A stretch of DNA of 64,000 nucleotides from Candidatus Aenigmatarchaeota archaeon (lineage in GTDB: Archaea; Aenigmatarchaeota; Aenigmatarchaeia; CG10238-14; SCSR01). How positions within the stretch are numbered: the stretch's first letter is position 1; every line of letters starts with the position of its first letter. The position numbers and the translations under genes are program-made. Where the stretch lies: contig JACRAE010000005.1 in assembly GCA_016213525.1 (NCBI GenBank), positions 145,405 to 209,404 on the forward strand. The letters run 5' to 3'. The notes under the pieces were generated by a model, which saw nothing but the letters and a program-made list of their open reading frames with translations, made no database searches and was not told where the DNA came from. Below, piece after piece: positions 36,475-64,000 of this stretch.

Positions 36475-36509
36475 ATTCTTATTTGGTGTTTGTCGGGTAA
36501 AAATCCGAG

Positions 36510-44605: not shown

Positions 44606-44679
44606 TGGGGTCGCCGTGATTTGAACACGGGTTTCGTGGCCCCAAACCACGAGGCCTAACCAAGCTAGCCGACGACCCC
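44606..44679 (-). tRNA. tRNA-Pro (anticodon UGG)
   Basis: Reverse complement GGGGTCG-TC-GGCTAGCTTGGTTAGGCC-T-CGTGG-TTTGGGG-CCACG-AAAC-CCGTG-TTCAAAT-CACGG-CGACCCC-A. Perfect 7-bp acceptor stem, anticodon loop TT-TGG-GG, T-loop TTCAAAT. No intron, CCA not encoded. Confidence 0.9.
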
Positions 44680-45135: not shown

Positions 45136-45200
45136 GGTTAGGAATCCCCATTTCCAGTATTTATCCTGTTCGGACGGGATGCGTCCTAGAAGATGTGAAG

Positions 45201-45274
45201 TGGGCGAGGCGGGATTTGAACCCGCGTCTTGTCCACCCCAAGGACAAAGCCTAACCAAGCTAGCCGACTCTCCC
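45201..45274 (-). tRNA. tRNA-Pro (anticodon GGG)
   Basis: Reverse complement GGGAGAG-TC-GGCTAGCTTGGTTAGGC..TGTCC-TTGGGGT-GGACA-AGAC-GCGGG-TTCAAAT-CCCGC-CTCGCCC-A. Anticodon loop TT-GGG-GT. One A4:G69 mismatch in the acceptor stem. No intron, CCA not encoded. Confidence 0.85.
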
Positions 45275-45313
45275 AATTCAATATTAATTGTTGGCTTCAC
45301 AATCTTAATTAAC

Positions 45314-47699: not shown

Positions 47700-50600
47700 C
47701 TAGCAGCCCCTCACGCTCACCAGCGCCACCGTCCCCTGCCTCCCCGTCTTCTCTATGCATATCCTGTGGCTCCCCTTGCCGAACTTGTCGGTCCCGTTCA
47801 GCGCTATCCTGCCGTACTGCAGTTCCATGTGCAGCATGCCGTCGCCAGATATCAAATACGATCCAAAGGGCCTCGTCGGGAGCCCCAGGCGCGTCACCGC
47901 CTCGCTCTGGTTCGCCACCACCGCGCAGGACGCCGCCGAGAACGGCACCACTGACCTGAGGGCGCCGAGTGATGTGATGTTGAATCTGTACTCGGACGCC
48001 GCCGCGTCGTTGCACAGCGAGACGAAGCTGCCCTCGTCGCCGGAGTAGACTATACCGGAGGACCTTGTCGAGGAGAGCTCGGACTGGTCGTACGAGCAGG
48101 CGTAAAGGTAGGAAGTGTTCTGCCTGGTGTAGCAGGCCGATGCGGGAGACGTCGAAGTCGATACCGTTCCTTCGCTGGTGCCGTTGATGAATATCATGCG
48201 CATGTCATAGTCCGCGCCCTCGAAGGTGTTGTTGTGGTCCGTGAGGTTGAACGCTGCCGACTGCACGCCTTCTGCCGAGGCGACCCTGTGCCACTTTCCC
48301 CCGACTGTCCTGTTCGCGCCGCCGAGGTAGAGCTGGTAGACTTCGTCTGGAGAGAGGGTTCTGTTTGTTATAATTACTTCGTCTATGGAACCGTTGAAAT
48401 AGCGGCTTTGGCCGAAGGTGTCAGACCCTATTCTGACACCCTGGGAATTTAGTTGCGTGTTCGCTCCCGAAAGCGCTGGACTAGCCACTAAAGTACCATT
48501 CACATAGAAGAATGATGTTGTTGTGTTATATGACCAAGTAACATGGGTCCATACATTATTTGGAATTATGTAATTTGCTGATACGTCATTGCTGTAAAAT
48601 CCCGCAGAAAGTCCACTTACGCCATTATAGTTGGCATAGAGCCATCTTGACTGATTTGTGTTAGTAGACCCATAGACTACAATCGGTCCGTCTCCACTTC
48701 CCCTATAATAAATCCATGCTGCTATTGTGTGGGGAGAATTACCGAGAGGTAGAGAGCTTGGATTTAAGTTGTTTACATAGTCATTTGTACCGTCGAAGAA
48801 CATACATCTCCCAAAATTATTTTTACAAGACGAGTTGGTCATCCATATTGCACCATTGATTACGCCGCCACCGTTCCCAAGTCCACTTGAGTCCGTTACG
48901 TTCAACGTCGAGTTGTCGTTGAACCTATAGTGCAGCACGGTACCAGCAGGAGTGACCGGCTGCAGCGTGGTGTTCGAGTCCTCCACGCCAAAGTACCTGT
49001 ACGTCTTTCCAGATGCGGCGGTGCCGAAGTCGTCGTAGTACCTCGTGACTTCGCGCTGGTAGTGCTCGCGGATCTCGGTGTCTGTGAGGGCGCGAGGATA
49101 CAATCTTACTTCATCAATCGTGCCGTTCCAACTTCTCTCGTTGAACGGGGTCTGTGCCCCTATCTTTGTCGAATAGGAACCGCCGGTACATATCGTTCCT
49201 ATGGTACCGCCACCACCGGATTGTATCCCATTGATGTATATCTGGGCTTTGTTTCCCTTATGAGTCACGGCCACGTGATACCATGTATTGAGTGACAATG
49301 CGTCCACACCATCGACATTAGTCCAACCACTACCCACAACATAAAACCACGCCCTCAGCACGCCTGTACTAGTCGTTGTATACAGACCGTACCCGCAATT
49401 GTCAGCTACAGTGTTCTTTGTAAAAATTGCCTTTAAGCCTTGGCCAGCAGTCGGTATCTGATTAGGATTTACCCAGGCTTCTATGGTCAGATCACCGGAT
49501 ATGTCAAAAATCGAGCTACTCGAAAGATTGACGTTATTGAATCCACCGTCGAAGCTCATGCAGCTGCCGAACTTGCATGATGAGTTTGAAATCCAGGTCG
49601 CGTTCACGGTACCCGTGTTCCCGTTCCCGCTCGAGTCAGTCGCGTTCAGGCCGGAGCCCTCGTCGAGGCGCCAGATTCCAGAAGCGCCGCCGTCATAGTT
49701 GAAGAGCAGCGAGGAATCGTGCTGCGTGACTCCGGACAGCGGGTTCGTCGAGTTCCAGGAGGCAGGATACCTAATGATTACGATTCCAGAGCCTCCTGTA
49801 CCACCAACGCCTCCGGCACCGCTTGCGAATGAAGCACCGCCGCCTCCACCGCCCGTGTTGGCGGTGCCGTCTGCTCCATTGTTGTTTCCGCCACCCGCGC
49901 CGGCATTACCGCCTCCTCCCGACCCGCCCGAACCGGACGTGCCACCCGTCCAAGTTCCACCGCCGCCTCCACCAGCCCTGTACACCAAGGTGCCGTTTAT
50001 GCTGCTCGCCAGTCCAGACCCTCCATTACCGCCTACCGTATTGCTTGGCGCCGTCTGGCCTACTGCACCAGCCCCGCCACCACCGCCATGGGGATAATTG
50101 CCGCCACATGCCGAGTATCCCGTGCCACCACTGTTTCCCTGGCCAGGCGTCCCCGCCACTGGAGACAGGGCACACGCGCTCCCTCCTCCCGAACCTCCAT
50201 GGGACCCGATGCCGGGCCCTCCCGAAGTGTCTCCTCCCCCTCCTCCCTTAGATTCAATGGTGTCGAAACTTGAGTTGGTCCCGTTCAAACCTTCGTTGAC
50301 ACTATCCACGCCTCCTCCCCCACCAGCCCCGATTACTATCGGATATGACCTGGAGGTTACTCTGTGGCCCGTTCCTGCCAAATAACCCCCGGCACCACCA
50401 CCGCCCCCGTATTTTCCACCACCACCTCCCCCTCCCGCTATCACAAGATATTCAACATTACCCGAGCCGCTAGTCACGTTGAACGTCCCGTTCGATGTGA
50501 ACGTGTGTATCTTGTAGCCGTCCGCGTACGTGACGTTGCCGCCCGTTGCTATTATTCCAGGAAGGTCGTACCACGTCAGCGTGCTGTTCGCCACGGACTC

Positions 50601-53600
50601 GATCAGCTCGCTCGAAAACTGCGTGGCGTTGTTCTGAGGGTTGAAGTTCGTCGTGTTCATCCTGCCCATCGTGCCTAGCGAGAACATGAAGTTCTGGTTC
50701 ATTGTGGAGTTGAACGTGTAGTTGAAGCCGAAGAAGTCGGTATGGTTGGAGAAAATGTTGAAGCCGGATTGTGTCGTGTTGGACAGAGTTCTGAAAACAT
50801 TTCTGACATTCGTCGTGGCGAACAACACCTCCTCGTTGTCCGTCGCGTTGTTCTTGGTGAAGTATATCCCGGGCTTCTGCTGGTTTATGCCTGTGTGATA
50901 CAGCTGAAGAATCTCCGAATGATTAAGGGCACGCCTATAGATTCGGGCCTCGTCAATATACCCATTGAATACTGTGTCACCAATGACTGCGTCTTTGGAC
51001 GACGAGACATCATAAACACTTCCAGACGCCGTCTTGTCAAGTGTGCCGTTGATATAGAGCCTCATATTGCCCCCTTCCCTTACCCCCACAACATGACTCC
51101 AGGATCTGACCGGTATCTTAGAATTAGATTGAATCTCAAGGTAACCGACGTTTTCAGTGACGAAATCGATAGTCCCGTCGGTGCCCAGAAGTCTCATGTA
51201 CCATTGCGCATTCCCCCCGCCCGGGTTTCTCTCTCCAACAAAAAATGATCCGGAAACCATGGCGCGGGGATTTACCCACACTTCGGCTGTGAAGTCGCTT
51301 GTTCCGAGATTCAAATTATTGTTGTCTGGCAAAAATACGATATCATCGCTCCCGTCGAAGCTCAGGCAGGAGCTGAACTTACAAGAAGAATTGCTGACAC
51401 GGGTAACTCCACCACTAAGATATCCAGGATTCCTCAGACCCGAAGAATCAGTGACATTCGTTCCAAATCCCTCGTTGAAGTTCCAGTACCCGACCAGTCC
51501 TGGCTCGGCTGTGGTGACGGACGTGCGGTTCTCGGGGAGGGAGAATGGGATGGATATGTTGCCGGGGCCGCCTGGGATCGTGGTGCCGTCCCAGAACTGC
51601 ACGTCGTCTATCCTAACCATATTGTCGTTCGACACAGCCTGATAGAAGAACTTGCCGAACAGGTATCTAAGGTCCGAGAAATACGACTTCGACGAAAGGG
51701 ACGTTGTGGCGGTCTCTTCTAGGTTGGAGTACTCGTCCGTGTAGATTTTCACGTCGACCTTCGGGTCTGACGCCGTGTAGACTAATTCCACCCACCTCGT
51801 CGCCGTGAGGGGCTCCGCTCTGCTAATTCCCGTCGCGTACTCGTTGGTGTTCGTCCAGGTGAAAGCATACATGTTAGAGGTCGATCCCGCGGCGTGCGCC
51901 GCCACCGCGAAGTGTATGGAATCGGCGGTCGCGGACGGATTCTCGCCGGAAAGCGAAGTGGAGTCTGTAAGGCCGAACCTCGCCATGACCGCTTGGCCGC
52001 TGGCGTCGTTTATGTAGTTGTTCAACACGACTTTGAACCTCATCACCCATCCGATGTTGTTGTCGGCGTAGTTTCCGGATCCCAAGACCCGTTGAAGATC
52101 ATAGGTCACCCAGTTATCGTCACCACTCTGGTTGTTGTTCATGTTCAGCGTTCCGTTCGTTATCGTCATCTTTCCAGAAGTCCCCGACCAGCTCGAGTTC
52201 GCCGAAAAGTCGTCCTTGAACTTAGTCCCGCCCTTCGAGTCGACGAATACCCTGACGAATGGGTCGTGAGCGGTCATAAGGAAACTTACGTTGACGCCGG
52301 GTTTGGTCATGTTCATGTTGGGATTGAACGCGTACCTCCACTTGAACTCCTGCTTGTTCCTAGGGTCGAGCCAGTCGGGCACCCCAGCCGCTTTATATCT
52401 TATAATAACGATACCCGAACCTCCCGCTCCGCCCGCATTTGCCGGGCTGCCAGCAGATGCCCTGGCTCCTCCACCGCCCGAACCGGTGTTCGCTGTTCCA
52501 GCCGTTGCAACTGCATTTCCTATAGATCCCGCCCCGCCCCCTCCCGAGCCCCCGGTGCCGGCAGCGACCGTAGCGCCTCCCCCACCTCCGCCAGCCCTAG
52601 TGACTGTAGAGCCGTTTATTCTGGACGATAGTCCAGCCCCTCCAGCACCGCCGGTGGTCCCCGAGTTGTTGCCGCCCGCACCTCCAGCTCCACCACCACC
52701 GCCTCCGACGTCTGCAGCAGAGCTCGACCCACCAATATTTCCCTGTCCAGAAGTTCCAGCCGCCCCGCCAAGTAGCTCCGCCCCACCGCCGCCCGAGCCT
52801 CCAGTTGACGCATTTGTAGTTAAAGCTCCACCGGCACCGCCTCCAGTTGCCATAACTGTTGAAAAAATAGAATTTGTACCATTACCTCCAACGTCGAGAT
52901 TTCCTCCAGCACCGCCGCTTCCGACCGTTATGTTATAGAGCTGTGCCGATACCGAGAGTTCTCCCTCCCTGTAGCCACCGGCACCGCCTCCTCCACCGAC
53001 CCATCCACCGCCGCCTCCACCTCCTGCTATAACAAGGTACTCCACTGTGCCGTTTCCAGACGTGACGTTAAACGTCCCATTTGAGGTGAAAGTGTGTATC
53101 GTATAGCCTTCCGCGTAAGTTATGTTGCCGCCAGTCGCCACTATTTTTTCAGATCCCTTTTTCCACAGAATCCAGCCCTGTTGATTCCAGTCGTAGAAAT
53201 AGACCGTCTTGTTCTGGGTGCCGGAGCCGTACAATGAAATCAAATTCTGGCCGTCGACTTTAATCGCGTCGTCGAAGCTCGCGTTGAAGATTATTTTATT
53301 AGACGAGTTGTACACGGTCATGTTCCTCTCCGTCATGCCGACGCGGATGAAGTCGTTCGATATGTTGACCACGCCGTAGAGCGAGCCGTTCTCGTCCATC
53401 CAGTAGCTGCCTCCAGGGCGGGAGTCGCGCAGCCCGAACTCGAACCCGTCCGAGCCGGCGAGGGTGTAGTTGACTGTGGTGTGGGTGGAGTTAGAGGTGT
53501 AGTTCCACGAGCCCTGCCCTATGCCAAGGAGCTCCCTCACGTCCCTCAGGCTGCCGTCGGACGCGTTGTAGAGGACCGAGGACGCGCCTCCTATTTGGAA

Positions 53601-54497
53601 GACGGACGTGCTGGAGTTGCGGGTGTAGTTTGTGTTGTCGATGATTGAAGTGTAGTTCACAGACCCGCCTGGAATAGAACCGCCCGAATATGTGAAGCTG
53701 GTCTCATTGCCTGCAATCCTTATCACGTCGCCAGTGCTGTTGGGGCCTATCCTGTAGCCGTACGTCAGGGTCGTCTGGTTGCGGGTCGTGTTCCTGACGT
53801 CGACGAGAAGGAAGTCCGACGAGGCCCGGAGCGTGTAGAGGACCTCGTACTCCGCTCCTTGAGAGGAGCGGACGTGGGCAAGCACGCCGGTGCTGGTCAG
53901 GCCGCCGCCCTCGAACGCGAGTTTGGTGTAGCCGGTGCCCCACGACGTGTCCGAGGTGCCGTTCAGGGTGATTCCGAAGTTCGTCGGGACTATCGTTGTT
54001 TGGGGCTCGGTCTTCGACCTCACCGTCTTGACGAGGGTGCTGGTGTTTATCGACGCGAAGCTGCCCTCAGTCCCCACTTTCAAAAAGACGACTTCCATCA
54101 GCTCGTTCTCTAATTTTAGATGGGTCGAGTTCTGGCTCGCGGAAGCGATGCCGGTTATGGTGGTGATGAGGTTGCCTTCCCTGTTGAACGTCCCCTTCGC
54201 CAGCGCCCCGGTCTTTATCGGGAGCTCGAAGCTGAAGGAGTTCGAGTCGGAGTCGACCCTGTAGACGCCGTCGTTCACGTTGATCTGGGCCACCCTCAGC
54301 GTGCCTGTGCCCTCCGCGGCCACCTGGCGCACGAGGTTGTCTATAATCTCCATGTTCTGGCCGGCCTCGCCTATTATGCCGGTCTCCCTCGCCTCGTCAA
54401 GAACGGGCAGGCCGATTCCGAGGACGACCCCTATGCCCACGAAGACGATGAGGGTCACGAGGACGAAGCTTATGAGTTCTGACGCTCCTTTGGGCAC
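47700..54497 (-). CDS. giant (2,265 aa) class-III-signal surface protein: pilin-like N-terminus + 2 Gly-rich modules + 3 LamG-like modules + Cys-terminated cap
   Basis: GTG start. (M)PKG|ASELISFVLVTLIVFVGIGVVLGIGLP. LamG signatures (W.F.EG.G...DSSG..N.G...W.SNSSCKF.SC.SFDG; W.HV...; LYINGT/IYING; IDE[AV]R[IL]Y.RAL...EI..[LH]Y) three times. TIHTFTSNGTFNVTSG.G.VEYLVIAGGGGGGG...GSGIVIIRY twice. Ends ..VSVRGC. Confidence 0.9.
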   Translation of the reverse strand: MPKGASELISFVLVTLIVFVGIGVVLGIGLPVLDEARETGIIGEAGQNMEIIDNLVRQVAAEGTGTLRVAQINVNDGVYRVDSDSNSFSFELPIKTGALAKGTFNREGNLITTITGIASASQNSTHLKLENELMEVVFLKVGTEGSFASINTSTLVKTVRSKTEPQTTIVPTNFGITLNGTSDTSWGTGYTKLAFEGGGLTSTGVLAHVRSSQGAEYEVLYTLRASSDFLLVDVRNTTRNQTTLTYGYRIGPNSTGDVIRIAGNETSFTYSGGSIPGGSVNYTSIIDNTNYTRNSSTSVFQIGGASSVLYNASDGSLRDVRELLGIGQGSWNYTSNSTHTTVNYTLAGSDGFEFGLRDSRPGGSYWMDENGSLYGVVNISNDFIRVGMTERNMTVYNSSNKIIFNASFDDAIKVDGQNLISLYGSGTQNKTVYFYDWNQQGWILWKKGSEKIVATGGNITYAEGYTIHTFTSNGTFNVTSGNGTVEYLVIAGGGGGGGWVGGGGGAGGYREGELSVSAQLYNITVGSGGAGGNLDVGGNGTNSIFSTVMATGGGAGGALTTNASTGGSGGGGAELLGGAAGTSGQGNIGGSSSAADVGGGGGGAGGAGGNNSGTTGGAGGAGLSSRINGSTVTRAGGGGGGATVAAGTGGSGGGGAGSIGNAVATAGTANTGSGGGGARASAGSPANAGGAGGSGIVIIRYKAAGVPDWLDPRNKQEFKWRYAFNPNMNMTKPGVNVSFLMTAHDPFVRVFVDSKGGTKFKDDFSANSSWSGTSGKMTITNGTLNMNNNQSGDDNWVTYDLQRVLGSGNYADNNIGWVMRFKVVLNNYINDASGQAVMARFGLTDSTSLSGENPSATADSIHFAVAAHAAGSTSNMYAFTWTNTNEYATGISRAEPLTATRWVELVYTASDPKVDVKIYTDEYSNLEETATTSLSSKSYFSDLRYLFGKFFYQAVSNDNMVRIDDVQFWDGTTIPGGPGNISIPFSLPENRTSVTTAEPGLVGYWNFNEGFGTNVTDSSGLRNPGYLSGGVTRVSNSSCKFSSCLSFDGSDDIVFLPDNNNLNLGTSDFTAEVWVNPRAMVSGSFFVGERNPGGGNAQWYMRLLGTDGTIDFVTENVGYLEIQSNSKIPVRSWSHVVGVREGGNMRLYINGTLDKTASGSVYDVSSSKDAVIGDTVFNGYIDEARIYRRALNHSEILQLYHTGINQQKPGIYFTKNNATDNEEVLFATTNVRNVFRTLSNTTQSGFNIFSNHTDFFGFNYTFNSTMNQNFMFSLGTMGRMNTTNFNPQNNATQFSSELIESVANSTLTWYDLPGIIATGGNVTYADGYKIHTFTSNGTFNVTSGSGNVEYLVIAGGGGGGGKYGGGGGAGGYLAGTGHRVTSRSYPIVIGAGGGGGVDSVNEGLNGTNSSFDTIESKGGGGGDTSGGPGIGSHGGSGGGSACALSPVAGTPGQGNSGGTGYSACGGNYPHGGGGGAGAVGQTAPSNTVGGNGGSGLASSINGTLVYRAGGGGGGTWTGGTSGSGGSGGGGNAGAGGGNNNGADGTANTGGGGGGASFASGAGGVGGTGGSGIVIIRYPASWNSTNPLSGVTQHDSSLLFNYDGGASGIWRLDEGSGLNATDSSGNGNTGTVNATWISNSSCKFGSCMSFDGGFNNVNLSSSSIFDISGDLTIEAWVNPNQIPTAGQGLKAIFTKNTVADNCGYGLYTTTSTGVLRAWFYVVGSGWTNVDGVDALSLNTWYHVAVTHKGNKAQIYINGIQSGGGGTIGTICTGGSYSTKIGAQTPFNERSWNGTIDEVRLYPRALTDTEIREHYQREVTRYYDDFGTAASGKTYRYFGVEDSNTTLQPVTPAGTVLHYRFNDNSTLNVTDSSGLGNGGGVINGAIWMTNSSCKNNFGRCMFFDGTNDYVNNLNPSSLPLGNSPHTIAAWIYYRGSGDGPIVVYGSTNTNQSRWLYANYNGVSGLSAGFYSNDVSANYIIPNNVWTHVTWSYNTTTSFFYVNGTLVASPALSGANTQLNSQGVRIGSDTFGQSRYFNGSIDEVIITNRTLSPDEVYQLYLGGANRTVGGKWHRVASAEGVQSAAFNLTDHNNTFEGADYDMRMIFINGTSEGTVSTSTSPASACYTRQNTSYLYACSYDQSELSSTRSSGIVYSGDEGSFVSLCNDAAASEYRFNITSLGALRSVVPFSAASCAVVANQSEAVTRLGLPTRPFGSYLISGDGMLHMELQYGRIALNGTDKFGKGSHRICIEKTGRQGTVALVSVRGC
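48900..49100. repeat. direct-repeat block shared by the two giant genes (copy 1)
   Basis: Aligns with 59537..59737 (offset 10,637). Includes an identical run of about 50 nt, gtgacttcgcgctggtagtgctcgcggatctcggtgtctgtgagggcgcg. Confidence 0.8.
53266..53580. repeat. direct-repeat block shared by the two giant genes (copy 1)
   Basis: Aligns with 63687..64000 at a constant offset of 10,421 nt. I estimate roughly 90% identity by eye. Confidence 0.8.
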
Positions 54498-54521
54498 ATT
54501 CTAATCTCGTGGCGGGGTGGC

Positions 54522-54535
54522 TTATTGCTTTCCCA
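54522..54535 (-). promoter_or_regulatory. BRE/TATA-like 14-mer upstream of giant-1
   Basis: Minus-strand gggaaagcaataag, 24 nt before GTG 54497. Identical 14-mer at 55023..55036. Confidence 0.5.
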
Positions 54536-54543
54536 TCGCCGGG

Positions 54544-54999
54544 TCAGCACGCGGTGGCGTTGACCGAGACGTGGGTGCCGTTCCAGCCGGCCTTTTCGAG
54601 GCAGACCCTCTGGAGCCCCTGTCCGAGCCGAAGGTCCCCAGAGACCGATATGTTGGAATAGGTCAGGTTGAGCCTGATTTTCCCGTTGACAATCAAGCTG
54701 CTGCCCTCGAGGAAGCCCTCCGGAGCCTCTGACCTGTATTCCACCCTCCCGTCGGCGATTCTGTAGCTCCCCCCGCTCACCTGCAAGGCGACCTCCCTCA
54801 CGCTTCCCTCTCCCCCCGATGCGGTGTCGCGGATTGCATTGTCCAAAATCAGCATGCTTCTTTGAGCATCGCCCAGCTCGGCTGACGCCCTTGAGTGATC
54901 GAGTGCAGGCAGACCGAACATCAAGACGGCGGAGACGCCGGCGACGCTGATCAAAACGACTATGACGGACGATATCATCGAGGACGTTCCCTTTCCCAT
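54544..54999 (-). CDS. type IV pilin-like protein; minimal scaffold homologous to the termini of the giant ORFs
   Basis: MGKG|TSSMISSVIVVLISVAGVSAVLMFGLPALD... aligns with the giant-1 N-terminus (GLPVLDEAR..MEIIDNLVRQVAAEGTGTLR). C-terminus RVCLEKAGWNGTHVSVNATAC aligns with both giant C-termini. Confidence 0.8.
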   Translation of the reverse strand: MGKGTSSMISSVIVVLISVAGVSAVLMFGLPALDHSRASAELGDAQRSMLILDNAIRDTASGGEGSVREVALQVSGGSYRIADGRVEYRSEAPEGFLEGSSLIVNGKIRLNLTYSNISVSGDLRLGQGLQRVCLEKAGWNGTHVSVNATAC

Positions 55000-55022
55000 G
55001 CTACTAGTTCCGCGGCTCCCGC

Positions 55023-55036
55023 CTTATTGCTTTCCC
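55023..55036 (-). promoter_or_regulatory. BRE/TATA-like 14-mer upstream of the 151-aa pilin-like gene
   Basis: Minus-strand gggaaagcaataag, 23 nt before ATG 54999. Confidence 0.5.
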
Positions 55037-55049
55037 TCCCGTCAGGCAA

Positions 55050-55060
55050 CAATTTAAATC
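55050..55060 (+). promoter_or_regulatory. TATA-like box
   Basis: caatttaaatc, about 28 nt upstream of dph2 ATG 55082. Confidence 0.45.
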
Positions 55061-55081
55061 CCCTTCTGTCATTCTATTGGT

Positions 55082-56038
55082 ATGCAGCTGTCGGAAGTCG
55101 TGAAGGACATGAAGAAGAGGGGCTACAGGCGCGCCTTCGTCCAGTACCCGGAGGGGATAAAGAGGAGGATGCCCGCCTTCGCGGAGGAGCTCGAGAAGGC
55201 CGGGATAGAGGCCGTCCTCTGCCTGGAATACACTTATGGGGCGTGCGACCTGCGCGAGTACGAGGCCGGCCTGATGAAATGCGATGCGCTTTTGCACGTC
55301 GGTCACGAGGACTTCGGGGTGAAGGCAAAGATGCCCGTTTATTATGTGGACTGGTTCATAGAGGCCGACCCCACGATCTGCCTGGAGAAGAACTTCGCCC
55401 AGCTCAAGCCGTACAAGACGATAGGTCTGGTGACGAGCGTCCAGTTCGTCCACATGATGAAGCCCGTCCGCGAGTGGCTAGAGGCGCACGGGAAGAGGGT
55501 GATGAGCAGCAGGCACCAGCAGTACGAGGGCCAGATGCTCGGGTGCAGGGTGCAGGCCGGGAAGAAGATAGAGGACGACGTCGACTGCTTCCTGTGCGTG
55601 GGCGCGGGCAAGTTCTACGGCCTCGGCCTGGCGCTGGAGACGGACAAGCCGATGCTGAACCTCGACATAGAGATGAACAAGATACACGACATGGAGGACG
55701 TCAAGAGGAGGATAATGAAGGTGACCGCGTGGAACCTCTCCGCCGTGAAGGACGCGAAGAAGGTCGGCCTTCTCGTCACTTGGAAGAGGGGCCAGATGTT
55801 CGGCTCGCCCTACGTCATAAAGAAGCTGCTGGAGAAGAAGGGCAAGCAGGTCTTCGTGTTCGCGTTCGACGAGCTCTCCATACCGAAGCTGGAGGGCCTG
55901 AAGGTCGACGCCATGATATCGTTCGGCTGCCCCAGGATATCGACGGACGACCTGGACAAGTACAAGGTCCCGTTCATCAACTTCACGGAGCTGATCAAGG
56001 ACGGCTACCTGAAAATCCCGGCCCTGAAAAACATTTAA
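55082..56038 (+). CDS. dph2: diphthamide synthesis enzyme Dph2 (2-(3-amino-3-carboxypropyl)histidine synthase)
   Basis: RAFVQYPEGIKRRMPAFAEELEKAGIEAVL...YGACD...DALLHVGH...FLCVGAGKFY...ISFGCPRIS. Confidence 0.88.
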   Translation: MQLSEVVKDMKKRGYRRAFVQYPEGIKRRMPAFAEELEKAGIEAVLCLEYTYGACDLREYEAGLMKCDALLHVGHEDFGVKAKMPVYYVDWFIEADPTICLEKNFAQLKPYKTIGLVTSVQFVHMMKPVREWLEAHGKRVMSSRHQQYEGQMLGCRVQAGKKIEDDVDCFLCVGAGKFYGLGLALETDKPMLNLDIEMNKIHDMEDVKRRIMKVTAWNLSAVKDAKKVGLLVTWKRGQMFGSPYVIKKLLEKKGKQVFVFAFDELSIPKLEGLKVDAMISFGCPRISTDDLDKYKVPFINFTELIKDGYLKIPALKNI

Positions 56039-56071
56039 ACACAACACGACCAATTATTCTAGTTGATTTTG

Positions 56072-56350
56072 ATGGATTTGAAAAAGGTCAAAGAGGACAA
56101 GGACACGCTCCTGTTGGAGATAGCCGGCGAGACCTTCACCGTGACGAACGCCCTGAAGGAGGAGCTGTGGAACGACAAGACGGTCTCCGAGGCCGCCCAG
56201 GTCCGCGAGCACCCCTACCTGTCCGAGCCGAAGGTCTTCGTGAAGACCGAGAAGGGCTCCCCCGTCGCGGCGCTCGAGAAGGCCGCCGAGAGGATATCCG
56301 CCAACGCGAAGGAGTTTCAGGCGGAGTTCAAGAAGGCCGCGAAGAAGTAG
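56072..56350 (+). CDS. rpoL: RNA polymerase subunit Rpo11 (RpoL)
   Basis: MDLKKVKEDKDTLLLEIAGETFTVTNALKEELWNDKTVSEAAQVREHPYLSEPKVFVKTEKGSP fits the Rpo11 pattern. The track ORF opens on TTG 56063. Start is ambiguous. Confidence 0.82.
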   Translation: MDLKKVKEDKDTLLLEIAGETFTVTNALKEELWNDKTVSEAAQVREHPYLSEPKVFVKTEKGSPVAALEKAAERISANAKEFQAEFKKAAKK

Positions 56351-56374
56351 CTCATTTTTCTAATACGCAATAAC

Positions 56375-56929
56375 TCAGCAGACTTTCTGACCCTTCTCCT
56401 TCAGGAGGGTCTCGTTGAAGTATATCGGCGCGCCCATCCTGAGGGCCAGAGCGGCCCCGTCGCTCGGCCTGGAGTCGAGGTTCAGGAGGACGTCCCCCTT
56501 CTTGAGGAGAGTCTGGCCGTAGAAGTTCTCGTCCCTGAGCTGCGTCACCTTCACCATCACCAGCTCCACACCGAGCTGCCCGAACGCGTCCCTCATCAGC
56601 TCGTGCGTGTTGGGCCTCGGCCCGGTGACGGAGTCGAGGGCGTTCTTTATCGACTCGGCCTGACCGACGTCCGTGCCCGCGACCAGCCTGTAGCACCCGC
56701 CGGTCATGGCGAGCACCCCCTTGCCGCCGATGACCTCCGCCTGCGGCCTAACCGTGACGAAGCCCTCCGTCGAGAGGTCGGAGATGCCGGCGTTCTCGAT
56801 CGTGTCCGGGCTCTCTATCTTCTCCATCTGCTCCAACAGGGCGGAGGCCGCCAGCGCAATCGATACCAGAGTCAAAATTATGAGCGCTTTCTCCCTCTTG
56901 TTTATGCGCGCGTCCTTCCCAGGCCTCAT
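56375..56929 (-). CDS. membrane-anchored bifunctional-nuclease-domain (DUF151/BFN) protein
   Basis: N-terminal TM ALIILTLVSIALAASALL, then GPRPNTHELMRDAF and LDSRPSDGAALALRMGAPIY (DUF151 hallmarks RP.THDL / D.RPSDA.ALA). Last residue is Cys (..GQKVC). Confidence 0.7.
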   Translation of the reverse strand: MRPGKDARINKREKALIILTLVSIALAASALLEQMEKIESPDTIENAGISDLSTEGFVTVRPQAEVIGGKGVLAMTGGCYRLVAGTDVGQAESIKNALDSVTGPRPNTHELMRDAFGQLGVELVMVKVTQLRDENFYGQTLLKKGDVLLNLDSRPSDGAALALRMGAPIYFNETLLKEKGQKVC

Positions 56930-56974
56930 GGTATTCAGTTTCCCCCTCCTCGGCTTAAAACTTTCCGTGGACGG

Positions 56975-59900
56975 TCAGCAGTTGGTGGCGTTGATCAGTA
57001 TCCTCGGCCCGTCCTGCCCTATCTTCTTGAAGCACGCCCTCTCCAGGCCCGGTCCCATCCTGAGGTCTCCCAATATCTTAATCCTGTCGTACTGCAGCAC
57101 CATCTGTAGGTTGGACGGCCCGCCCGCCAGATAGGAGCCGAACGATATCGCAGGGACGCCCTGGCTGAAGACGGTTCCCGTGCCATTGCCTATCGTGCCG
57201 CAGTCCCCGGTCGAGAACGGTATTATGGTCTTCAGCGGCCCGGCGGCGGTGAGGTTGAACTTGTACACCGCCCCCGTCTGGTTCCCGCCGACGCCCTCGA
57301 AGCATATCGAGGAGAAGTCCTGCGCCCTGCCGGCCCCGATTATGCCCGAAGCCTTGGCCTGGGAGAACTCGGAGTCGTCGTACGAGCAGGCGTACGGCCT
57401 GGTGACGTTCGTGATGTTGAAGCATCCCGGGCTCGGGGCGGCCGCCGAGATGGACGAATTCGAAGTCGAGCCGTTCACCGTCAGCGCGCGCATGTCGTAG
57501 TCCGCGCCCTCGAAGGTGCTGTTGTGGTCCGTCAGGTTGAACGAGACTGACTGTATCCCGTCGGCGGAGGCGACCCTATGGATGCGGCCGTATATCGACT
57601 CCGAGTCCTGCGTCTGGACGTACTCGTGCATCACCTCATCTGACGTGAGGGCGCGCTTCCAAACCTTGACGTTGTCCACCGTGCCGTTCAGGTATCCGTG
57701 GGTCGCGTCGTTGGGGCTGGACGACCTCGCCCCTATCGTGAATATGCCTGTGTCATCTTGTATCGTCCCGGAAAATGATGCAGATGAAACCCTGGTCCCG
57801 TTTACGTAGAGGGTGACGTTCTTGACGACGTCATCGACGACCAAAGTCGCATGTACCCATGTATCGAGAGGAAATATTGTTCCCGGACCGGAAGACACGG
57901 TTGTCTGGGTTGTGCTCCCATTATATATTATCCCTCTGATTGATGGAGTCGTCCCATCCCAGAAGAGCATGTACCCCTCGTAGTCCCCTGTCACGTCCTC
58001 CTTCCCGGCTATCCCTTGGTTGGCGTTGCCGGATATGTTCCCGAGCCTCTTCGTCCAGGCGGACACGGTCAGGCTCTTGTGGTTCAGGCTCGGGGAGTTC
58101 TCGACCTTCACGTAGTCGTCCATACCGTCGAACCTCAGCGCATTCCCCAGCTTGTCATCCGACCCATGGACTCCTCCCGTCAGGTTGCCGGTGTTACCGT
58201 TCCCGCTGGAATCCAGGGTGTAGTTGGAATAGATGAAAGTGGCGTTCGAGCTCCCCGCGTTGCTTCCGTCGTATATCCTCATGTTGTCTATGGTGGCGGT
58301 CAGCGTCCTCGATCCCGATCCTTCCTTTCCGTTTGCGTGCTGCAGGTACCTCAAGTTCTGTATCGTGGCAGGAACCGACCTGGTGACGGACCCGACCAGG
58401 GTGCTCCTCTGGGGATCGGAGAAGACGGACATTGCCATGGCGGTCGCGTTCAGCCTCTCCACGCGCATGTAGTATGTCGTACTGGAGCTCAGAGTGGTCC
58501 CAGTCACGATGGACGCGTCCGTCCCGTTGTCTATGTATTCCGGATGCATCCTGTTGCCGTCGGCCCCGTCGTATCCAAAGTTGACGCCGATTCCATCACC
58601 GCTCGCCGTGTCGTAGACATCCTGACTGTCGTTGGTAAGCCAGAACACCCTGTGGGACGGTATGTTGGACGCCGTCCACCTGAACTCGAAATTCGCCACC
58701 CATCTAGTGTTGCTGAGGTTCCGCCCCAGATCGTACCACACTCTGCTTTCGACGGCGTCCGCGCCGAAACCCGTCACCTGTCCGTTCGAGACCGCGACGC
58801 CGGACCCGACCTGCGTCCATCCCCCGGAAGAGGAGTAGTTGAAGCTGATGTCCGGGAGGTCCGCGTCGTTGAACTTCCACCATCCAACCAGGTCGCCGCC
58901 GTGCCTCTGGGCGCCGCCGAGGTAGAGCTGATAGACCTCGTCGGGGGACAGGCTCCTGTTCACTATGATTAAATCGTCAATCATCCCTCCTAGGAAGCCG
59001 GTGGACCGGGCCCTGCCCAGATCGAGGTTGTATGTCGGGCCCAAGGAGCTCGGATTGAAGCTGAGCTTGTCGTATGTCTCCATGTTGCCGCCGTCGAAGA
59101 ACACCCTGGCGTTGCCACGGGTCAGGTTGTTGTCGTATGTGACGGTGAGCATGTGCCATTTCTCATCGTCGGTTATCTTTCCGATTGACGTCACGTCGAG
59201 GAGTCCCTGCGCGCCGTTGCCGTTGGCTATTTCATAGTCTATCGTGCCGTCGGTGTTTGATTCCAGTCCTATTCCAACGTTCGCCCACGTGTCGTCTTTG
59301 TTGTCAAGTATGTAGTCCTTCGTCGCCCCTCTCTTCTTGAACCACGTGTTTATGGTGAACTTAGAGTTGCTCTTGTGCATCCATGCCCAGTTGCTGATGT
59401 TTCCCAGCTGGACATAGTCGTTAGAGTCGTCGAAGCTCATGCAGCCGCCGAAGCTGGCCATGCATGACGTATTTGAAATCCATGCCGCTCCATTTACAAC
59501 AGAGCCTGTAATATTGTTACCGGAAGCGTCCGTCGCGTTCAACGTCGAGTTGTCGTTGAACCTGTAGTGCAGCACCGTTCCCGCGGGCGTCACCGGCTGC
59601 AGCGTCGTGTTCGAGTCCTCCACGCCGAAGTAGCGGTAAGTCTTCCCGTAGGTGGCGGTGCCGAAATCGTCGTAGTATTTAGTGACTTCGCGCTGGTAGT
59701 GCTCGCGGATCTCGGTGTCTGTGAGGGCGCGGGGATAGATACGAACTTCGTCGAGATAGCCGTTGAAGAAGTTAGCAACTCCGCCTCTGGCGCCCATTAT
59801 CAAATTTGTCGGGTTCGGGTTTAAGGTGACAGACAATGCATACTGAGACTCCATAATACCATCGACATAAATTCGGCTAACGCTGCCGTCATATGTTCCT

Positions 59901-62900
59901 ACAACATGATGCCATATGTTGTCGTTGAACACCGTCCTAGTCTTCGGGGCGGCGTTTCCCTGCAGGGCAAAATATATCATATGGTCGTCTGACCCGGCGG
60001 TTCCGGCATGAGTAAGAGCGTAGCCGTTAGTGTTGTATCCTCCTTTGTCTATTATGCCGGCGTCAATTGACGGCGCTCCCGGACTCTTTATCCAGGCTTC
60101 CAAGGAGATCTTGTTATTGATGTTCAGGGACGTGCCGTTGCCGGCATTTATATAATCATTTGATCCATCGAAATAAATACAGCCGCCATATTTACAGGAA
60201 GAATTGCTAATCCAAGCAGGTCCGCTTAGAAGAGTTCCCGTGTTCCCGTTCCCGCTCGCGTCGGTCGCGTTCAGCCCGGAGCCCTCGTCGAAGCGCCAGA
60301 TTCCGGCAGCGCCGCCGTCGTACATGAAGAACGGTGTGGTAAAGGAAGTCGCTCCGTTAGTTTGGTTGACCGTGCCAAAGTTCGGATAGTTGTCTATAGT
60401 TGCGAGGTAGTCGGCGCGGATTTCGTCCTGTGATAACGCACGGGAATATGCCTTAAGGTTGTCTATCATGCCGTTGAAGAATACCGAGCCCCCAGATGTG
60501 GATCCTACTCTGAACTTACATGTCTGGTTGCAATTGATGTTGTTTATCGTGCCTACTATCGTGTCTGTGCTGGTGCTTTCTACCCCGTCTACGTACAGGC
60601 TCATGCTGTCTTTACCGTATCCGGTCGGAGTTCTCCTCGCCACACCAACCGCATGGTGCCAGTTTCCATCAGCGTAATTCGCAGACGTGTCTCTCTGGTG
60701 ATAATTAGAGTTGTCTCCGCCTTGGACAAGCCAGCTGACATGACCCCCAGAAGTAATTAGAAGCTGGTAGCCAGCGTTGTTGTCTATGTTCTTGCTGACT
60801 AGGGTTCCGGCCGAGGTCACGGTCGTCCTGAACCACACTTCCATGGTGAAGTCCTGTGTCATGTTGAGTGCGAGCGTGTTGTTGACCTCAATGTAGTCGT
60901 TCGAGCCGTCAAAGCTTATGCAGCTGCCGAAGTTGTTCTTACACGACGAGTTCGTTATCCATGTAGGACTGCTTGTGAGTGTGGCGGTGTTGTTGTTCCC
61001 GGTAGAGTCATAGGCCGTCGTACCCCCACCCTCATTGAACCTCCACCACCCGACGAGCGAGCCGTCGAACAAATCGTAGTAGGTCATCGTCGAGTTCGCG
61101 ATGGACTCGATTAGCTCGTTGGAGAAAACAGAATAATTATTTTGAGGGTTGAAGACAGTTGTGTTCATCCTGCCCATAGTGCCGAGGGCGAACATGAAGT
61201 TCTGATTCATGGTGGAGTTGAACGTGTAGTTGAAGCCAAAGAAGTTGGTGTGGTTGGAGAATATCTGGAAGTTGGAGGCGGTCCCGACGTTGCTGTTGGC
61301 GGATGTCCTGTTCACGTTCTTGAAATTCGTCGTCGCGAACAGGACCTCCTCGTTGTCCGTAGCGTTGTTCTTCGTGAAGTAGACGCCGGGCTTCTGCTGG
61401 TTGAGACCCGTTAGATATAATTGTCGAATCTCCGATGGACTCAATGCACGGTTGTATACTCGGGCCTCGTCCAGTTCTCCCCGTAAAGAGGCTGCTGCGT
61501 CGTGACGGACCGCGAAAAGTATGTAATTTCCGTTGCTAGTGAAGCTTCCAGTCCTTGAAGTGGCCGCTTCCTCTATTCCGTCCACATAGACCCTCATCGT
61601 GGTCCCATCGTACGTGCCTACAACATGATGCCACGCGTTATCGTTGAAAAGGGTGTTGGTTGTCACGCTCGATCCCAGCGCCCCAAAGTATATTTTGTGG
61701 TCCGATGCGCCCGCGGTTCCGGCGTGAGAAAACCCTATTTCGCTGTTTCCACTGTACATTATAACAGTATCTAGACTATTTGCTCCCGGAGACTTGACCC
61801 AAATAGAGTAAGACGCGCTGTTCCTTCCAGACAATTCAAAGTTAATCCCCGTACCGTTGATGTAGTCTCCGGAGCCGTCGAAGCTCACGCAGCCTCCAAA
61901 TTTACAAGATGAATTTGAAACCCAGCTAGTTCCGCCATAGAGCCTCTCTGTGTTACCATTGCCGCTGGAGTCTGTTATGTTCGTTCCCCTGCCCTCGTTG
62001 AAGTTCCAGTATCCGACCAGCCCGGGCTCGGCCGTAGTGACGGAGGTGCGGTTCTCGGGGAGGGAGAACGAGATGGTCGTATTGGAATAGGAGCTTACGT
62101 TGCTCGTGTCCTCGTAGAACTCAAGATCGTCCACGTTGCCGCTCATCCAACCAGCCTGGCTCTGGACCACGTTCAAGATTTTGATGTACCTGAGGTCCCT
62201 TACGGTGGAAGGGACCGCGACGGTCGACCTTCCGAGAACCGTTCTGTACTTGTCAGAGAATAGGGTGAAAGTGAATGCGGTCGAGTTCTCTCTCTTCAGT
62301 TCCCACCAGTATTCCGTGTTGTCGACGAACGTGTAGAATATCTCGCCCAGCTGGCTGCCTGGAAGTGTCGAGTCGTCCACGATGAACGACCTGTAGCTGC
62401 GGCCGCCATTCCTGTCTATATAGAGGAACAAGCCGTCCTGGGTGGAGCTGGCGGACGTGTTGGTGCTGGAAATGCCTATGACTATGCCGGCTCCGACGCC
62501 CGCGGAGCTGGTCAGGAGGCCCGTCCTGAACCTCATCGTCCAGATGTTCCCGACGTTCCTCCCATAGTCGAAGTACATGTTGTCGTTTGTGCCGTCGTTC
62601 AGGCCCATGAAGTAGGCGGACTCTGTGCTCTTGTTGACTCGTATCTTGTTAGAATCGGCCGGTATCCATATGGAGTCTGCCTGAGATTGGCTGGAGTAGG
62701 ACGAAAAATCTTCTCTCAGGTTGGCTAGACTGTCGCCCGAGTCCACAAATATCCTCACGAATGGGTCGTGTGCCGTCATCAGGTAGGTGTAGTTGACGAC
62801 CGGGCTCCCTGCCCTCGAGAAGGAATATCTCCACTTGAACGCCTGTTTGTTCCTCGAATCGAGCCAGTCAGGTACGTTGCTGTCTCGATACTCTGCCAAT

Positions 62901-64000
62901 ATCTCATCGGGTGTGAGCGCCTTGTGCCAGACCTTCACGCCGTCCATCAGACCGTTGAAATTGTAGTATCCAGACCCTTCATTGCCCAAAATAAACGCGC
63001 CTAGAGACCCGCTACCCTGCGGCAGCTTGCTCCATTGGGCAGTTGGGTTGTTACCAGAGGTGCTCTTCGCGGTCTGGACAAGGTTGCCGTCTATGTACAG
63101 CTGCCTGGTCGCGTTGTCCTTGTAGACGACTGCGAGGTGCGTCCAGCTGTTGATGGTGGGTGTGTAGACGAAGGACTCATCGTTCTGGTACGAGCCATAG
63201 TATATCGTCGTCACGCCGGAGCTGCTGAACATACGAAGGTGGTACCCACTGTTGTACGCGCCCCATTCCTTCTGCATGATGTACGACCAATCGTTGCTCG
63301 GGAGCGCCCTCGGTTTTATCCACACGCCGATTGTCAACGGGTTGCTGGTCGAGTCCAGACTAGCGGAGTCCGGGGCCTTCACGCTGTTGCCGACGCCATC
63401 GAAGCTCAGGCAATACCCATAATTCTCCCTACAGGAGGAGTTCGTTATCCGCGTCACGTTGGTTACCGTGGCGGTGTTCGCGTTCCCGCTCGAATCCGTC
63501 GCGTTCCCACTGATTTCGTTGAACTTCCACCACAAACCTAGGTTCTCTCCGGCCACGGTCTTTGAATCGCCGTATCCCTTCTGCCAGGGGACCCATTTTT
63601 GCCCACTCCAGTCGTAGAAATATACGGTCTTGTTCTGCGTTCCCGCCCCATAAGTCGATATCATGTCTTGCCTGTCGACCTTCACAGCGTCGTCGAAGCT
63701 CGCGTTGAAGATTATTTTATTAGACGAGTTGTACACGGTCATGTTCCTCTCCGTCATCCCGACGCGGATGAAGTCGTTCGATATGTTCACGATGCCGTAT
63801 AGGGAGCCGTTCTCGTCCAGCCAATAGCTGCCGCCGGGTCTGCTGTCCCGTACGCCGAACTCATACCCGTCCGAGCCGGCGAGGGTGTAGTTGACGGTCG
63901 TGTGGGTGGAGTTCGAGGTGTAGTTCCACGAGCCCTGGCCTATGCCGAGGAGCTCCCTCACGTCCCTCAGGCTGCCGTCGGACGCGTTGTAAAGGACCGA
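56975..64000 (-). CDS. giant surface protein, paralog 2 (partial: 5' end beyond the window; at least 2,341 aa here) with at least 6 LamG-like modules and Cys-terminated cap
   Basis: The frame stays open to nt 64000 (SVLYNASDGSLRDVRELLGIG...). The track's M at 63961 is an internal GTG. Colinear with giant-1 residues from about 306 onward. Six W.F.E..G...D.SGN.NT modules. Ends ..ILINATNC. Confidence 0.9.
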   Translation of the reverse strand, partial: SVLYNASDGSLRDVRELLGIGQGSWNYTSNSTHTTVNYTLAGSDGYEFGVRDSRPGGSYWLDENGSLYGIVNISNDFIRVGMTERNMTVYNSSNKIIFNASFDDAVKVDRQDMISTYGAGTQNKTVYFYDWSGQKWVPWQKGYGDSKTVAGENLGLWWKFNEISGNATDSSGNANTATVTNVTRITNSSCRENYGYCLSFDGVGNSVKAPDSASLDSTSNPLTIGVWIKPRALPSNDWSYIMQKEWGAYNSGYHLRMFSSSGVTTIYYGSYQNDESFVYTPTINSWTHLAVVYKDNATRQLYIDGNLVQTAKSTSGNNPTAQWSKLPQGSGSLGAFILGNEGSGYYNFNGLMDGVKVWHKALTPDEILAEYRDSNVPDWLDSRNKQAFKWRYSFSRAGSPVVNYTYLMTAHDPFVRIFVDSGDSLANLREDFSSYSSQSQADSIWIPADSNKIRVNKSTESAYFMGLNDGTNDNMYFDYGRNVGNIWTMRFRTGLLTSSAGVGAGIVIGISSTNTSASSTQDGLFLYIDRNGGRSYRSFIVDDSTLPGSQLGEIFYTFVDNTEYWWELKRENSTAFTFTLFSDKYRTVLGRSTVAVPSTVRDLRYIKILNVVQSQAGWMSGNVDDLEFYEDTSNVSSYSNTTISFSLPENRTSVTTAEPGLVGYWNFNEGRGTNITDSSGNGNTERLYGGTSWVSNSSCKFGGCVSFDGSGDYINGTGINFELSGRNSASYSIWVKSPGANSLDTVIMYSGNSEIGFSHAGTAGASDHKIYFGALGSSVTTNTLFNDNAWHHVVGTYDGTTMRVYVDGIEEAATSRTGSFTSNGNYILFAVRHDAAASLRGELDEARVYNRALSPSEIRQLYLTGLNQQKPGVYFTKNNATDNEEVLFATTNFKNVNRTSANSNVGTASNFQIFSNHTNFFGFNYTFNSTMNQNFMFALGTMGRMNTTVFNPQNNYSVFSNELIESIANSTMTYYDLFDGSLVGWWRFNEGGGTTAYDSTGNNNTATLTSSPTWITNSSCKNNFGSCISFDGSNDYIEVNNTLALNMTQDFTMEVWFRTTVTSAGTLVSKNIDNNAGYQLLITSGGHVSWLVQGGDNSNYHQRDTSANYADGNWHHAVGVARRTPTGYGKDSMSLYVDGVESTSTDTIVGTINNINCNQTCKFRVGSTSGGSVFFNGMIDNLKAYSRALSQDEIRADYLATIDNYPNFGTVNQTNGATSFTTPFFMYDGGAAGIWRFDEGSGLNATDASGNGNTGTLLSGPAWISNSSCKYGGCIYFDGSNDYINAGNGTSLNINNKISLEAWIKSPGAPSIDAGIIDKGGYNTNGYALTHAGTAGSDDHMIYFALQGNAAPKTRTVFNDNIWHHVVGTYDGSVSRIYVDGIMESQYALSVTLNPNPTNLIMGARGGVANFFNGYLDEVRIYPRALTDTEIREHYQREVTKYYDDFGTATYGKTYRYFGVEDSNTTLQPVTPAGTVLHYRFNDNSTLNATDASGNNITGSVVNGAAWISNTSCMASFGGCMSFDDSNDYVQLGNISNWAWMHKSNSKFTINTWFKKRGATKDYILDNKDDTWANVGIGLESNTDGTIDYEIANGNGAQGLLDVTSIGKITDDEKWHMLTVTYDNNLTRGNARVFFDGGNMETYDKLSFNPSSLGPTYNLDLGRARSTGFLGGMIDDLIIVNRSLSPDEVYQLYLGGAQRHGGDLVGWWKFNDADLPDISFNYSSSGGWTQVGSGVAVSNGQVTGFGADAVESRVWYDLGRNLSNTRWVANFEFRWTASNIPSHRVFWLTNDSQDVYDTASGDGIGVNFGYDGADGNRMHPEYIDNGTDASIVTGTTLSSSTTYYMRVERLNATAMAMSVFSDPQRSTLVGSVTRSVPATIQNLRYLQHANGKEGSGSRTLTATIDNMRIYDGSNAGSSNATFIYSNYTLDSSGNGNTGNLTGGVHGSDDKLGNALRFDGMDDYVKVENSPSLNHKSLTVSAWTKRLGNISGNANQGIAGKEDVTGDYEGYMLFWDGTTPSIRGIIYNGSTTQTTVSSGPGTIFPLDTWVHATLVVDDVVKNVTLYVNGTRVSSASFSGTIQDDTGIFTIGARSSSPNDATHGYLNGTVDNVKVWKRALTSDEVMHEYVQTQDSESIYGRIHRVASADGIQSVSFNLTDHNSTFEGADYDMRALTVNGSTSNSSISAAAPSPGCFNITNVTRPYACSYDDSEFSQAKASGIIGAGRAQDFSSICFEGVGGNQTGAVYKFNLTAAGPLKTIIPFSTGDCGTIGNGTGTVFSQGVPAISFGSYLAGGPSNLQMVLQYDRIKILGDLRMGPGLERACFKKIGQDGPRILINATNC
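59537..59737. repeat. direct-repeat block shared by the two giant genes (copy 2)
   Basis: Partner of 48900..49100. Confidence 0.8.
63687..64000. repeat. direct-repeat block shared by the two giant genes (copy 2)
   Basis: Partner of 53266..53580. The similarity runs to the window edge. Confidence 0.8.

Follow-up and report, generated by a model that had tools for sequence, protein, structure and literature searches.

Conserved junction modules and a short gene conversion tract in giant paralogous genes for putative surface proteins of an Aenigmatarchaeota archaeon

Introduction

In archaea, gene conversion between paralogs is known from the chaperonin genes of crenarchaea. The mtrA paralogs of methanogens are another archaeal case (PMC4632066). 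Here we describe two giant genes, referred to as g1 and g2, in a stretch of 64,000 nucleotides (nt) from the genome of a Candidatus Aenigmatarchaeota archaeon (the window; C3:145405-209404), and a third paralog, g3, on another contig of the same genome. Genes g1 and g2 share blocks of similar DNA that are separated by divergent DNA, and in one of these blocks a short tract has been exchanged. The locus is a fresh instance of a known process, interparalog gene conversion, in a rare protein family.

As in the described cases, there is a short tract of near identity that includes the silent sites of old paralogs, the tract and its flanks give discordant trees, and the genome encodes RadA. The locus differs from those cases in that its tracts are about 100-200 nt long and discontinuous, involve three copies, and are situated in multi-kilobase modular genes for surface proteins. 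In addition, most of the blocks of identity between these genes are not conversion tracts.

Bacterial systems of cassette variation, such as Neisseria pilE/pilS, Borrelia vlsE, the Mycoplasma MgPa repeats and Treponema tprK, provide a second comparison. Like systems of the pilE/pilS type, the archaeal genes have conserved segments beside variable ones in a surface protein, and DNA moves between the copies by homologous recombination. However, the locus does not have an expression site with silent, truncated donors, as g1, g2 and g3 are complete open reading frames (ORFs) with their own starts; the exchanged tract lies within a conserved module and not a variable one, and variants within the population were not seen in the assembler contigs of one sequencing run. 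Programmed antigenic variation of the cassette type was rejected as a description of the locus, since its defining trait (silent, truncated, promoterless donors) is contradicted by the three complete genes.

Proteins with laminin-G (LamG) domains have been described from DPANN archaea, among them nanohaloarchaeal laminin-G proteins and the ARMAN-type Mia14 (PMC7443923, PMC5498576). As far as these two accounts extend, their proteins and ours have in common a large size, a secreted or surface location, concanavalin-A-like LamG domains and an origin in small-genome, presumably host-attached archaea. Measured against the same accounts, the proteins studied here differ in having a pilin-type signal, a DUF7289-like N-domain and fixed junction modules, and their family is very rare.

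Results

The three giant genes

The genome (662 kb in 7 contigs, 89% complete) is reduced, was derived from a groundwater metagenome and most likely belongs to a DPANN-type archaeon. Its three giant genes, with lengths in amino acids (aa), are:

47700..54497, minus strand: g1, ORF of 2265 aa
56975..64000 inside the window, minus strand: g2, cut by the window end; by extension along the contig, full g2 has 2646 aa and starts at window-equivalent position 64915 (C3:210319)
C5:58605-65744, on the other contig: g3, 2379 aa, identified by tblastn of g1 against the genome

All three are complete ORFs (2,265-2,646 aa), each of which has a start codon and a hydrophobic N-terminal segment, and both ORFs at the window locus are unbroken (2,265 codons in g1 and 2,646 codons in g2). 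The N-termini of g1 and g2 are pilin-like and hydrophobic, with a weak match to DUF7289 in Pfam that in g1 scored 21.8-24 bits, under the 27-bit cut-off. Following its pilin-like signal and domain, g1 contains two Gly_rich_2 cassettes, three Laminin_G_3 domains and a C-terminal domain whose final residue is Cys. Six or more Laminin_G_3 domains and zero Gly_rich_2 were identified in g2 by Pfam. The third paralog has the same conserved junction modules as g1 and g2 but other termini, namely a hydrophobic anchor without the pilin-like domain at its N-terminus and a weak match to the Ig-like Big_13 in its C-terminal region.

A three-way mosaic tract in block A

Evidence for recombination between g1 and g2 was clearest in the region that we refer to as block A, which contains a core of much higher identity:

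block A, g1 53186-54188, matching g2 63607-64609: offset 10421, 74.9% identical over 1026 nt by BLASTN
core of block A, 53266-53644, matching 63687-64065: 92.9% identical, 27 differences in 379 nt

This core, hereafter the tract, was not uniform. It consisted of two near-identical patches with a divergent middle of 77 nt between them, as listed here with the silent-site divergence (dS) between g1 and g2:

patch T1, 53444..53644, minus strand, matching 63865-64065: 96.5% identical, 7 differences in 201 nt, dS 0.14, g3 the outlier
middle patch, 53367..53443, minus strand, 77 nt: 75% identical, dS 1.21
patch T2, 53266..53366, minus strand, matching 63687-63787: 99% identical, 1 difference in 101 nt, dS 0.06, holding a 71-nt exact repeat

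The values of dS are Nei-Gojobori distances calculated per segment from a codon alignment of collinear BLASTP segments. In the DNA that flanks the tract dS was at least 1.2 (1.19 in the N-domain and saturated in segment A2), and g3 was without the silent-site identity that g1 and g2 have in the tract (segment A1). In the middle patch it was g1 that resembled g3 (dS 0.46), and g2 was the outlier with dS of 1.2-1.3 to both. The informative sites shared by g1 with g2 and by g1 with g3 flipped from 70:3 in T1 to 3:12 in the middle patch (Fisher p=9e-10, or 5e-4 when silent sites alone are counted). A Sawyer-type maximal-segment permutation, run on the silent sites of the g1/g2 codon alignment, identified 53268-53642 as the sole significant fragment (identity at 99 of 116 codons, P=0.0002), and the runner-up fragments were not significant against the background of conserved blocks. 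Recombination between g1 and g2 took place at 53266-53644, and the tract is a three-way mosaic in which the third paralog took part.

Trees of the tract and of the terminal domains

Only four full-length relatives outside the genome (P0005, P0006, P0007 and P0008) were found in 5.8 billion protein clusters, which hold 7 full-length proteins of the family in total. Loci of the family numbered 4 in 185,579 species genomes and 5 in short metagenome contigs, and the members taken together were g1, g2, g3, P0005-P0008 and L017-L026. An ortholog closer than ~65% protein identity was not found in the genomes of 30 relatives, the 5.8 billion clusters, the 185,579 species genomes or the metagenome contigs of JGI.

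The tree of the N-domain (aa 3-270) grouped g1 with P0006 (98/97) and g2 with P0005 (98/96), and the approximately unbiased (AU) test rejected a grouping of g1 with g2 (p=0.002). The same grouping was rejected for the C-terminal domain (p=0.0009), in an alignment that includes a non-homologous g3 row. In the tree of the tract, based on 86 residues adjoining the N-domain, g1 and g2 formed a clade (95/97), and the AU test rejected both g2 with P0005 (p=0.0021) and g1 with P0006 (p=0.0017). The discordance of these trees indicated that g1 and g2 are old lineages with a later exchange of the tract, and such discordance between tract and flank is the mark that paralogs typically bear after gene conversion or recombination. 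A recent duplication of the whole gene followed by fast divergence was also considered, and was ruled out by the terminal-domain trees and the saturated dS. Since the tract is closer to P0005, the relative in the g2 lineage (64%), than to P0006, that in the g1 lineage (55%), its sequence points weakly to g2 as the probable donor.

The other shared blocks are junction modules

The search for shared blocks combined BLASTN of g1 against g2 with a repeat search. Beyond block A, these blocks were:

block B, 52236-52382, minus strand, matching 62738-62875: 72% nt identity by BLASTN; motif VPDWLDPRNKQ.FKWRY...LMTAHDPFVR.FVDS
block C, 51457-51553, minus strand, matching 61980-62076: offset 10523, 87.6%, E 9e-30; motif SLPENRTSVTTAEPGLVGYWNFNEG
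block D, 50566-50954, minus strand, matching 61074-61471: offset ~10508, 76.1%, E 5e-78; motif INQQKPG.YFTKNNATDNEEVLFATTN ... MNQNFMF.LGTMGRMNTT
block E, 49609-49705, minus strand, matching 60234-60330: 89.7% nt identity; motif YDGGA.GIWR.DEGSGLNATD.SGNGNTG at the start of a LamG domain
block F, BLASTN match, 48891-49100, matching 59528-59737: offset 10637, 88.6%, E 8e-75
block F, extent, 48891..49127, minus strand, matching 59528-59764: 85-89% nt identity; motif YPRALTDTEIREHYQREV..YYDDFGTA..GKTYRYFGVEDSNTTLQP
block G, 48316-48386, minus strand, matching 58911-58981: 80% nt identity; motif SLSPDEVYQLYLGG
block H, 48198-48290, minus strand, matching 57488-57580: offset 9290, 84.9%, E 7e-25; motif HRVASA.G.QS..FNLTDHN.TFEGADYDMR
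YACSYD island, 48072-48104, minus strand, matching 57362-57394: 91%

The longest exact repeat between g1 and g2 was that of 71 nt within 53266-53366. An earlier note on this DNA had listed five matches between the two genes, and all of them were recovered by BLASTN (E-values 7e-25 down to 0) and the repeat search at their coordinates and offsets, far beyond chance, with divergence between the genes that was not uniform. A run of about 50 identical nt that the note had placed inside 48900..49100 proved exact (49045-49094, equal to 59682-59731, in block F). The term near-identical, which the note had used for all the blocks, fits only 53266-53644, as the other blocks are 72-90% identical. In addition, the first match, given as 53266..53580 with 63687..64000, is real but had been ended too early, as it runs beyond the window to 64065, and four blocks were missing from the list (52236-52382, 49609-49705, 48316-48386 and 48072-48104).

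The motifs of blocks B-H were also identified in P0005-P0008 and in the G004 protein, including in another genus of the same family; that of block B was found in P0005, P0007 and P0008. The motifs kept in the outside homologs include VPDWLDPRNKQ.FKW, LMTAHDPFVR.FVD, SLPENRTSVTTA and INQQKPG.YFT, as well as YDGGA.GIW..DEG, YYDDFGTA..GKTYRYFGVEDSNT.LQP, EVYQLYLGG and HR..S.DG. Their retention indicated that the blocks are family-wide junction modules under purifying selection. In A1, C, D, E and F the copies within the genome were 73-96% alike in aa, and any of them compared with the outside homologs was 48-81% alike.

Silent sites outside the tract

For each segment we compared the fraction of identical residues that had identical codons (codon identity) with the expectation from the genes' own codon usage. 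These values and dS between g1 and g2 were:

N-domain: dS 1.19
A1 (53265-53642): dS 0.27; codon identity observed 0.85, expected 0.42, P=4e-21
A2: dS saturated; codon identity at baseline, not significant
B: dS 1.67; codon identity at baseline, not significant
C: dS 0.95; codon identity observed 0.54, expected 0.41, P=0.05
D: dS 1.20; codon identity observed 0.63, expected 0.48, P=0.002
E: dS 1.31; codon identity observed 0.64, expected 0.43, P=0.006
F: dS 0.67; codon identity observed 0.74, expected 0.45, P=7e-7
G: dS 1.35; codon identity at baseline, not significant
H: codon identity observed 0.69, expected 0.46, P=0.015
C-terminal aa 2086-2173: codon identity observed 0.89, expected 0.48, P=2e-7
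three aligned LamG domains and an unassigned module: dS saturated; codon identity at baseline, not significant

The excess over the codon-usage baseline was clear in F and weak in C, D, E and H. Between g1 and g2 the protein identity of the C-terminal domain does not exceed 35-55% (window 47979-48242; 35-40% around block H and the YACSYD island), and 33 of its 37 identical residues had identical codons where 17.8 would be expected (P=2e-7). These codons cluster in two islands, FNLTDHN.TFEGADYDMR and YACSYD.SE.S, and adjacent codons differ at 2-3 bases. The islands could be the result of micro-conversion or of an unexplained constraint at the nucleotide level.

Outside block A, closest-pair identity was clustered along the sequence (P=0.0002 per site, a value inflated by multi-base codon changes, for which reason the test was repeated per codon, with P=0.003). 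Most of this clustering was carried by block F (P=0.002), which has a three-way patchiness. Judged by sequence, F and the H/C-terminal islands have probably undergone older or very short exchange. For B, C, D, E and G, no exchange could be demonstrated from silent sites and trees.

Cassettes and shifting offsets

The DNA between the junction modules differs between the two genes in kind as well as in sequence:

52410..53153, minus strand: Gly_rich_2 cassette 1 of g1; g2 has Laminin_G_3 at the same junction, 62888-63574 (Pfam)
49767..50561, minus strand: Gly_rich_2 cassette 2 of g1; g2 has Laminin_G_3 at the same junction, 60398-61069 (Pfam)
57581..58910, minus strand: g2-specific segment of 1,330 nt from block H to block G, against 25 nt in g1; contains LamG and an extra unassigned module

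The Gly_rich_2 and Laminin_G_3 cassettes are non-homologous and of unequal length, and g3 has yet different cassettes at the same junctions. Other spacers are homologous LamG or unassigned modules with 23-40% protein identity. The extra unit in g2 amounts to 1,305 nt, and its position between G and H accounts for the jump in offset from 10595 to 9290. More generally, the offsets shift because of cassette replacement (Gly_rich_2 versus Laminin_G_3) and this 1,305-nt insertion.

Two further large ORFs, of 1069 and 1277 aa, also have modules similar to Gly_rich_2 and 53-57% identical to those of g1, at 35578-36492 (C3:180982-181896) and at C4:44841-45584. The Gly-rich cassette is therefore not confined to the three giants.

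Support for the assembly

As an independent check, we used Logan contigs and unitigs (k=31 graph) of the sole public sequencing run with the organism (X1); the organism was not present in the sister runs X2 and X3. All copy-specific pieces of the genes were found in the Logan contigs with 0 differences and at an even depth of 20-30x. The contigs break precisely at the shared blocks, as is expected for a k=31 graph, and for annotators it is of practical note that such giant genes break short-read assembly graphs at each junction module. In the tract, the g1- and g2-specific unitigs were both at single depth and the shared 71-mer was at double depth, indicating that the near identity of the tract is not a duplication made by the assembler.

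At two positions, 53571 and 53588, the sole unitig has the g2 letters (A and T) at approximately double depth, and the g1 letters (G and C) were unseen. Either the assembler popped a bubble at these sites or the g1 sequence has two erroneous letters. Hybrid contigs and structural variants were absent among the assembler contigs of the one run, and such contigs drop rare variants. Joints that had hinted at variants were rejected, as one side was <30 nt long or the joint came from a g2 or g3 contig cross-matching a g1 block; on closer inspection only the g2 contig was present.

Neighbouring genes

Directly upstream of g1 there is an ORF of 151 aa (54544-54999, minus strand) with a DUF7289 match of 32.4 bits, over the Pfam cut-off. 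It aligns with the N-terminal ~150 aa of g1 and with the last ~50 aa of g1, and thereby resembles a minimal giant without cassettes. Between g1 and g2, on the same strand, lies a gene for a bifunctional nuclease-domain protein of 184 aa (BFN_dom, E=9e-23; 56375-56929, minus strand). Downstream of g1 are genes for a NosD-type beta-helix protein (657 aa; 42524-44497, minus strand) and a HerA/DUF87 ATPase (483 aa; 45134-46585, plus strand). In the same region 44601-44673 and 45196-45268 form a direct repeat of 73 nt with 75% identity, which by its sequence may represent two tRNA genes.

Discussion

Conservation of modules, together with the replacement of cassettes, accounts for most of the block pattern of g1 and g2; conversion is clear for a single tract and probable for a few others. 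We consider it likely that the whole pattern has arisen from old paralogs under purifying selection, with differences in cassettes and a few short patches of conversion. The three genes would be old paralogs of a rare modular family of archaeal surface proteins, which begin with a pilin-type signal and N-domain and continue as a string of variable cassettes (LamG, Gly-rich or unassigned) that short conserved junction modules hold apart; g1 and g2 have a C-terminal domain in common, and the termini of g3 are different. Purifying selection keeps the junction proteins alike, and by itself it gives 72-88% nt identity even though silent sites are saturated or nearly so. The cassettes are non-homologous, or homologous and saturated, which gives the divergent spacers and the shifting offsets. 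The third layer would be a few non-reciprocal patches of homologous recombination, about 30-200 nt long, superimposed on the conserved modules and clearest in block A; F and H are likely to have further patches that are weaker, older or shorter.

The genome has a match to the RadA/Rad51 family (C2:22899-23600, 303 bits, E=3.6e-91), and we infer that RadA-dependent strand invasion may be seeded in the conserved DNA of the junctions. The partners in such exchange would be the direct-repeat genes g1 and g2, 10.4 kb apart, and the unlinked g3, and the outcome would be patches that are short, discontinuous and non-reciprocal. Short discontinuous tracts have been described experimentally for Sulfolobus, and the tract here is comparable to them.

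Several points weigh against this explanation. The comparison set consists of three paralogs and four distant outgroups of <=65% identity, so that any assignment of direction, timing and non-reciprocity would be tentative. The breakpoints and the tested clades were picked after viewing the data, which makes the Fisher and AU p-values optimistic. The trees of blocks D and F had no resolution, with no grouping rejected by the AU test, and the clustering outside block A became marginal when conservative silent-codon labels were used (P=0.049). The original assembly is the sole source for how the pieces are joined over the shared blocks. In addition, a recent common ancestry of the gene interiors, with the terminal domains swapped by recombination, would describe the data equally well and has to be kept in mind.

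The earlier note had proposed gene conversion between the paralogs. This proposal stands for 53266-53644, based on silent sites, dS, trees and the three-way mosaic, and does not hold as the chief source of the patchwork; the changing offsets, which the note had taken as a mark of conversion, are caused by non-homologous cassettes and an insertion. A wider form of the proposal, in which pervasive and perhaps ongoing conversion among the paralogs made all the blocks, with the junctions as shuffling sites that vary the cell surface, appears improbable to us. It would account for the greater likeness in A1, C, D, E and F of the paralogs within the genome (73-96% in aa, versus 48-81% to outside proteins), even though the termini of g1 and g2 group with outside relatives, and for the excess of identical silent sites in F, H, D and E. 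Also in line with it are the three types of cassette that g1, g2 and g3 have at corresponding junctions and, beyond block A, the clustering of closest-pair labels (P=0.0002 per site, 0.003 per codon). However, dS does not fall below 0.95 in B, C, D, E and G; B, G and A2 have silent sites at baseline, and the trees of D and F leave groupings of the orthology type unrejected. Selection suffices for the blocks, which are conserved motifs in other genera, and zero structural variants or hybrid contigs were present in the sole run with the organism, which is a weak argument given that contigs drop rare variants.

At the other extreme, constraint on protein or nucleotides since an ancient duplication could be held to explain all the blocks, including 53266-53644, with no recombination. 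Most blocks do fit this, as their motifs are kept across genera and their silent sites are saturated, but we regard it as very unlikely for the pattern as a whole: the A1 tract has dS of 0.06-0.14 amid saturated flanks, the trees are discordant with AU rejections in both directions, and the informative sites switch abruptly among the three copies. The lack of A1 silent-site identity in g3 makes a nucleotide-level constraint unlikely as well. A false mosaic produced by chimeric or collapsed assembly over the shared blocks, a risk that the earlier note had raised, is to our judgement the least credible explanation. The worry is lowered and still there: Logan de Bruijn contigs break right at the shared blocks, linkage across the blocks is known from the original assembly only, and 53571/53588 are covered only by the g2-letter unitig at double depth. 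Against it, Logan matched the copy-specific DNA letter for letter at an even depth of 20-30x, the g1 and g2 forms of the tract are separate single-depth unitigs with the shared 71-mer at double depth, the longest exact repeat (71 nt) is probably under the read length, which we assumed, and both ORFs are intact.

The value of the locus is descriptive: the process is a textbook one, and this is a clean, small-scale example of it with three-way patchiness. The analysis separates true conversion tracts from module conservation, two things that are alike to the eye. There is a small chance that the junction modules are fixed recombination sites for repeated exchange of cassettes and tracts among the three giants. 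If this were true, a genome-reduced and presumably host-attached archaeon would be diversifying its contact surface, as an archaeal counterpart of bacterial cassette variation. As to the tract itself, homologous recombination between paralogs operates in an archaeal genome of 0.66 Mb, and it shapes the largest surface proteins of the organism, the molecules likeliest to touch its host.

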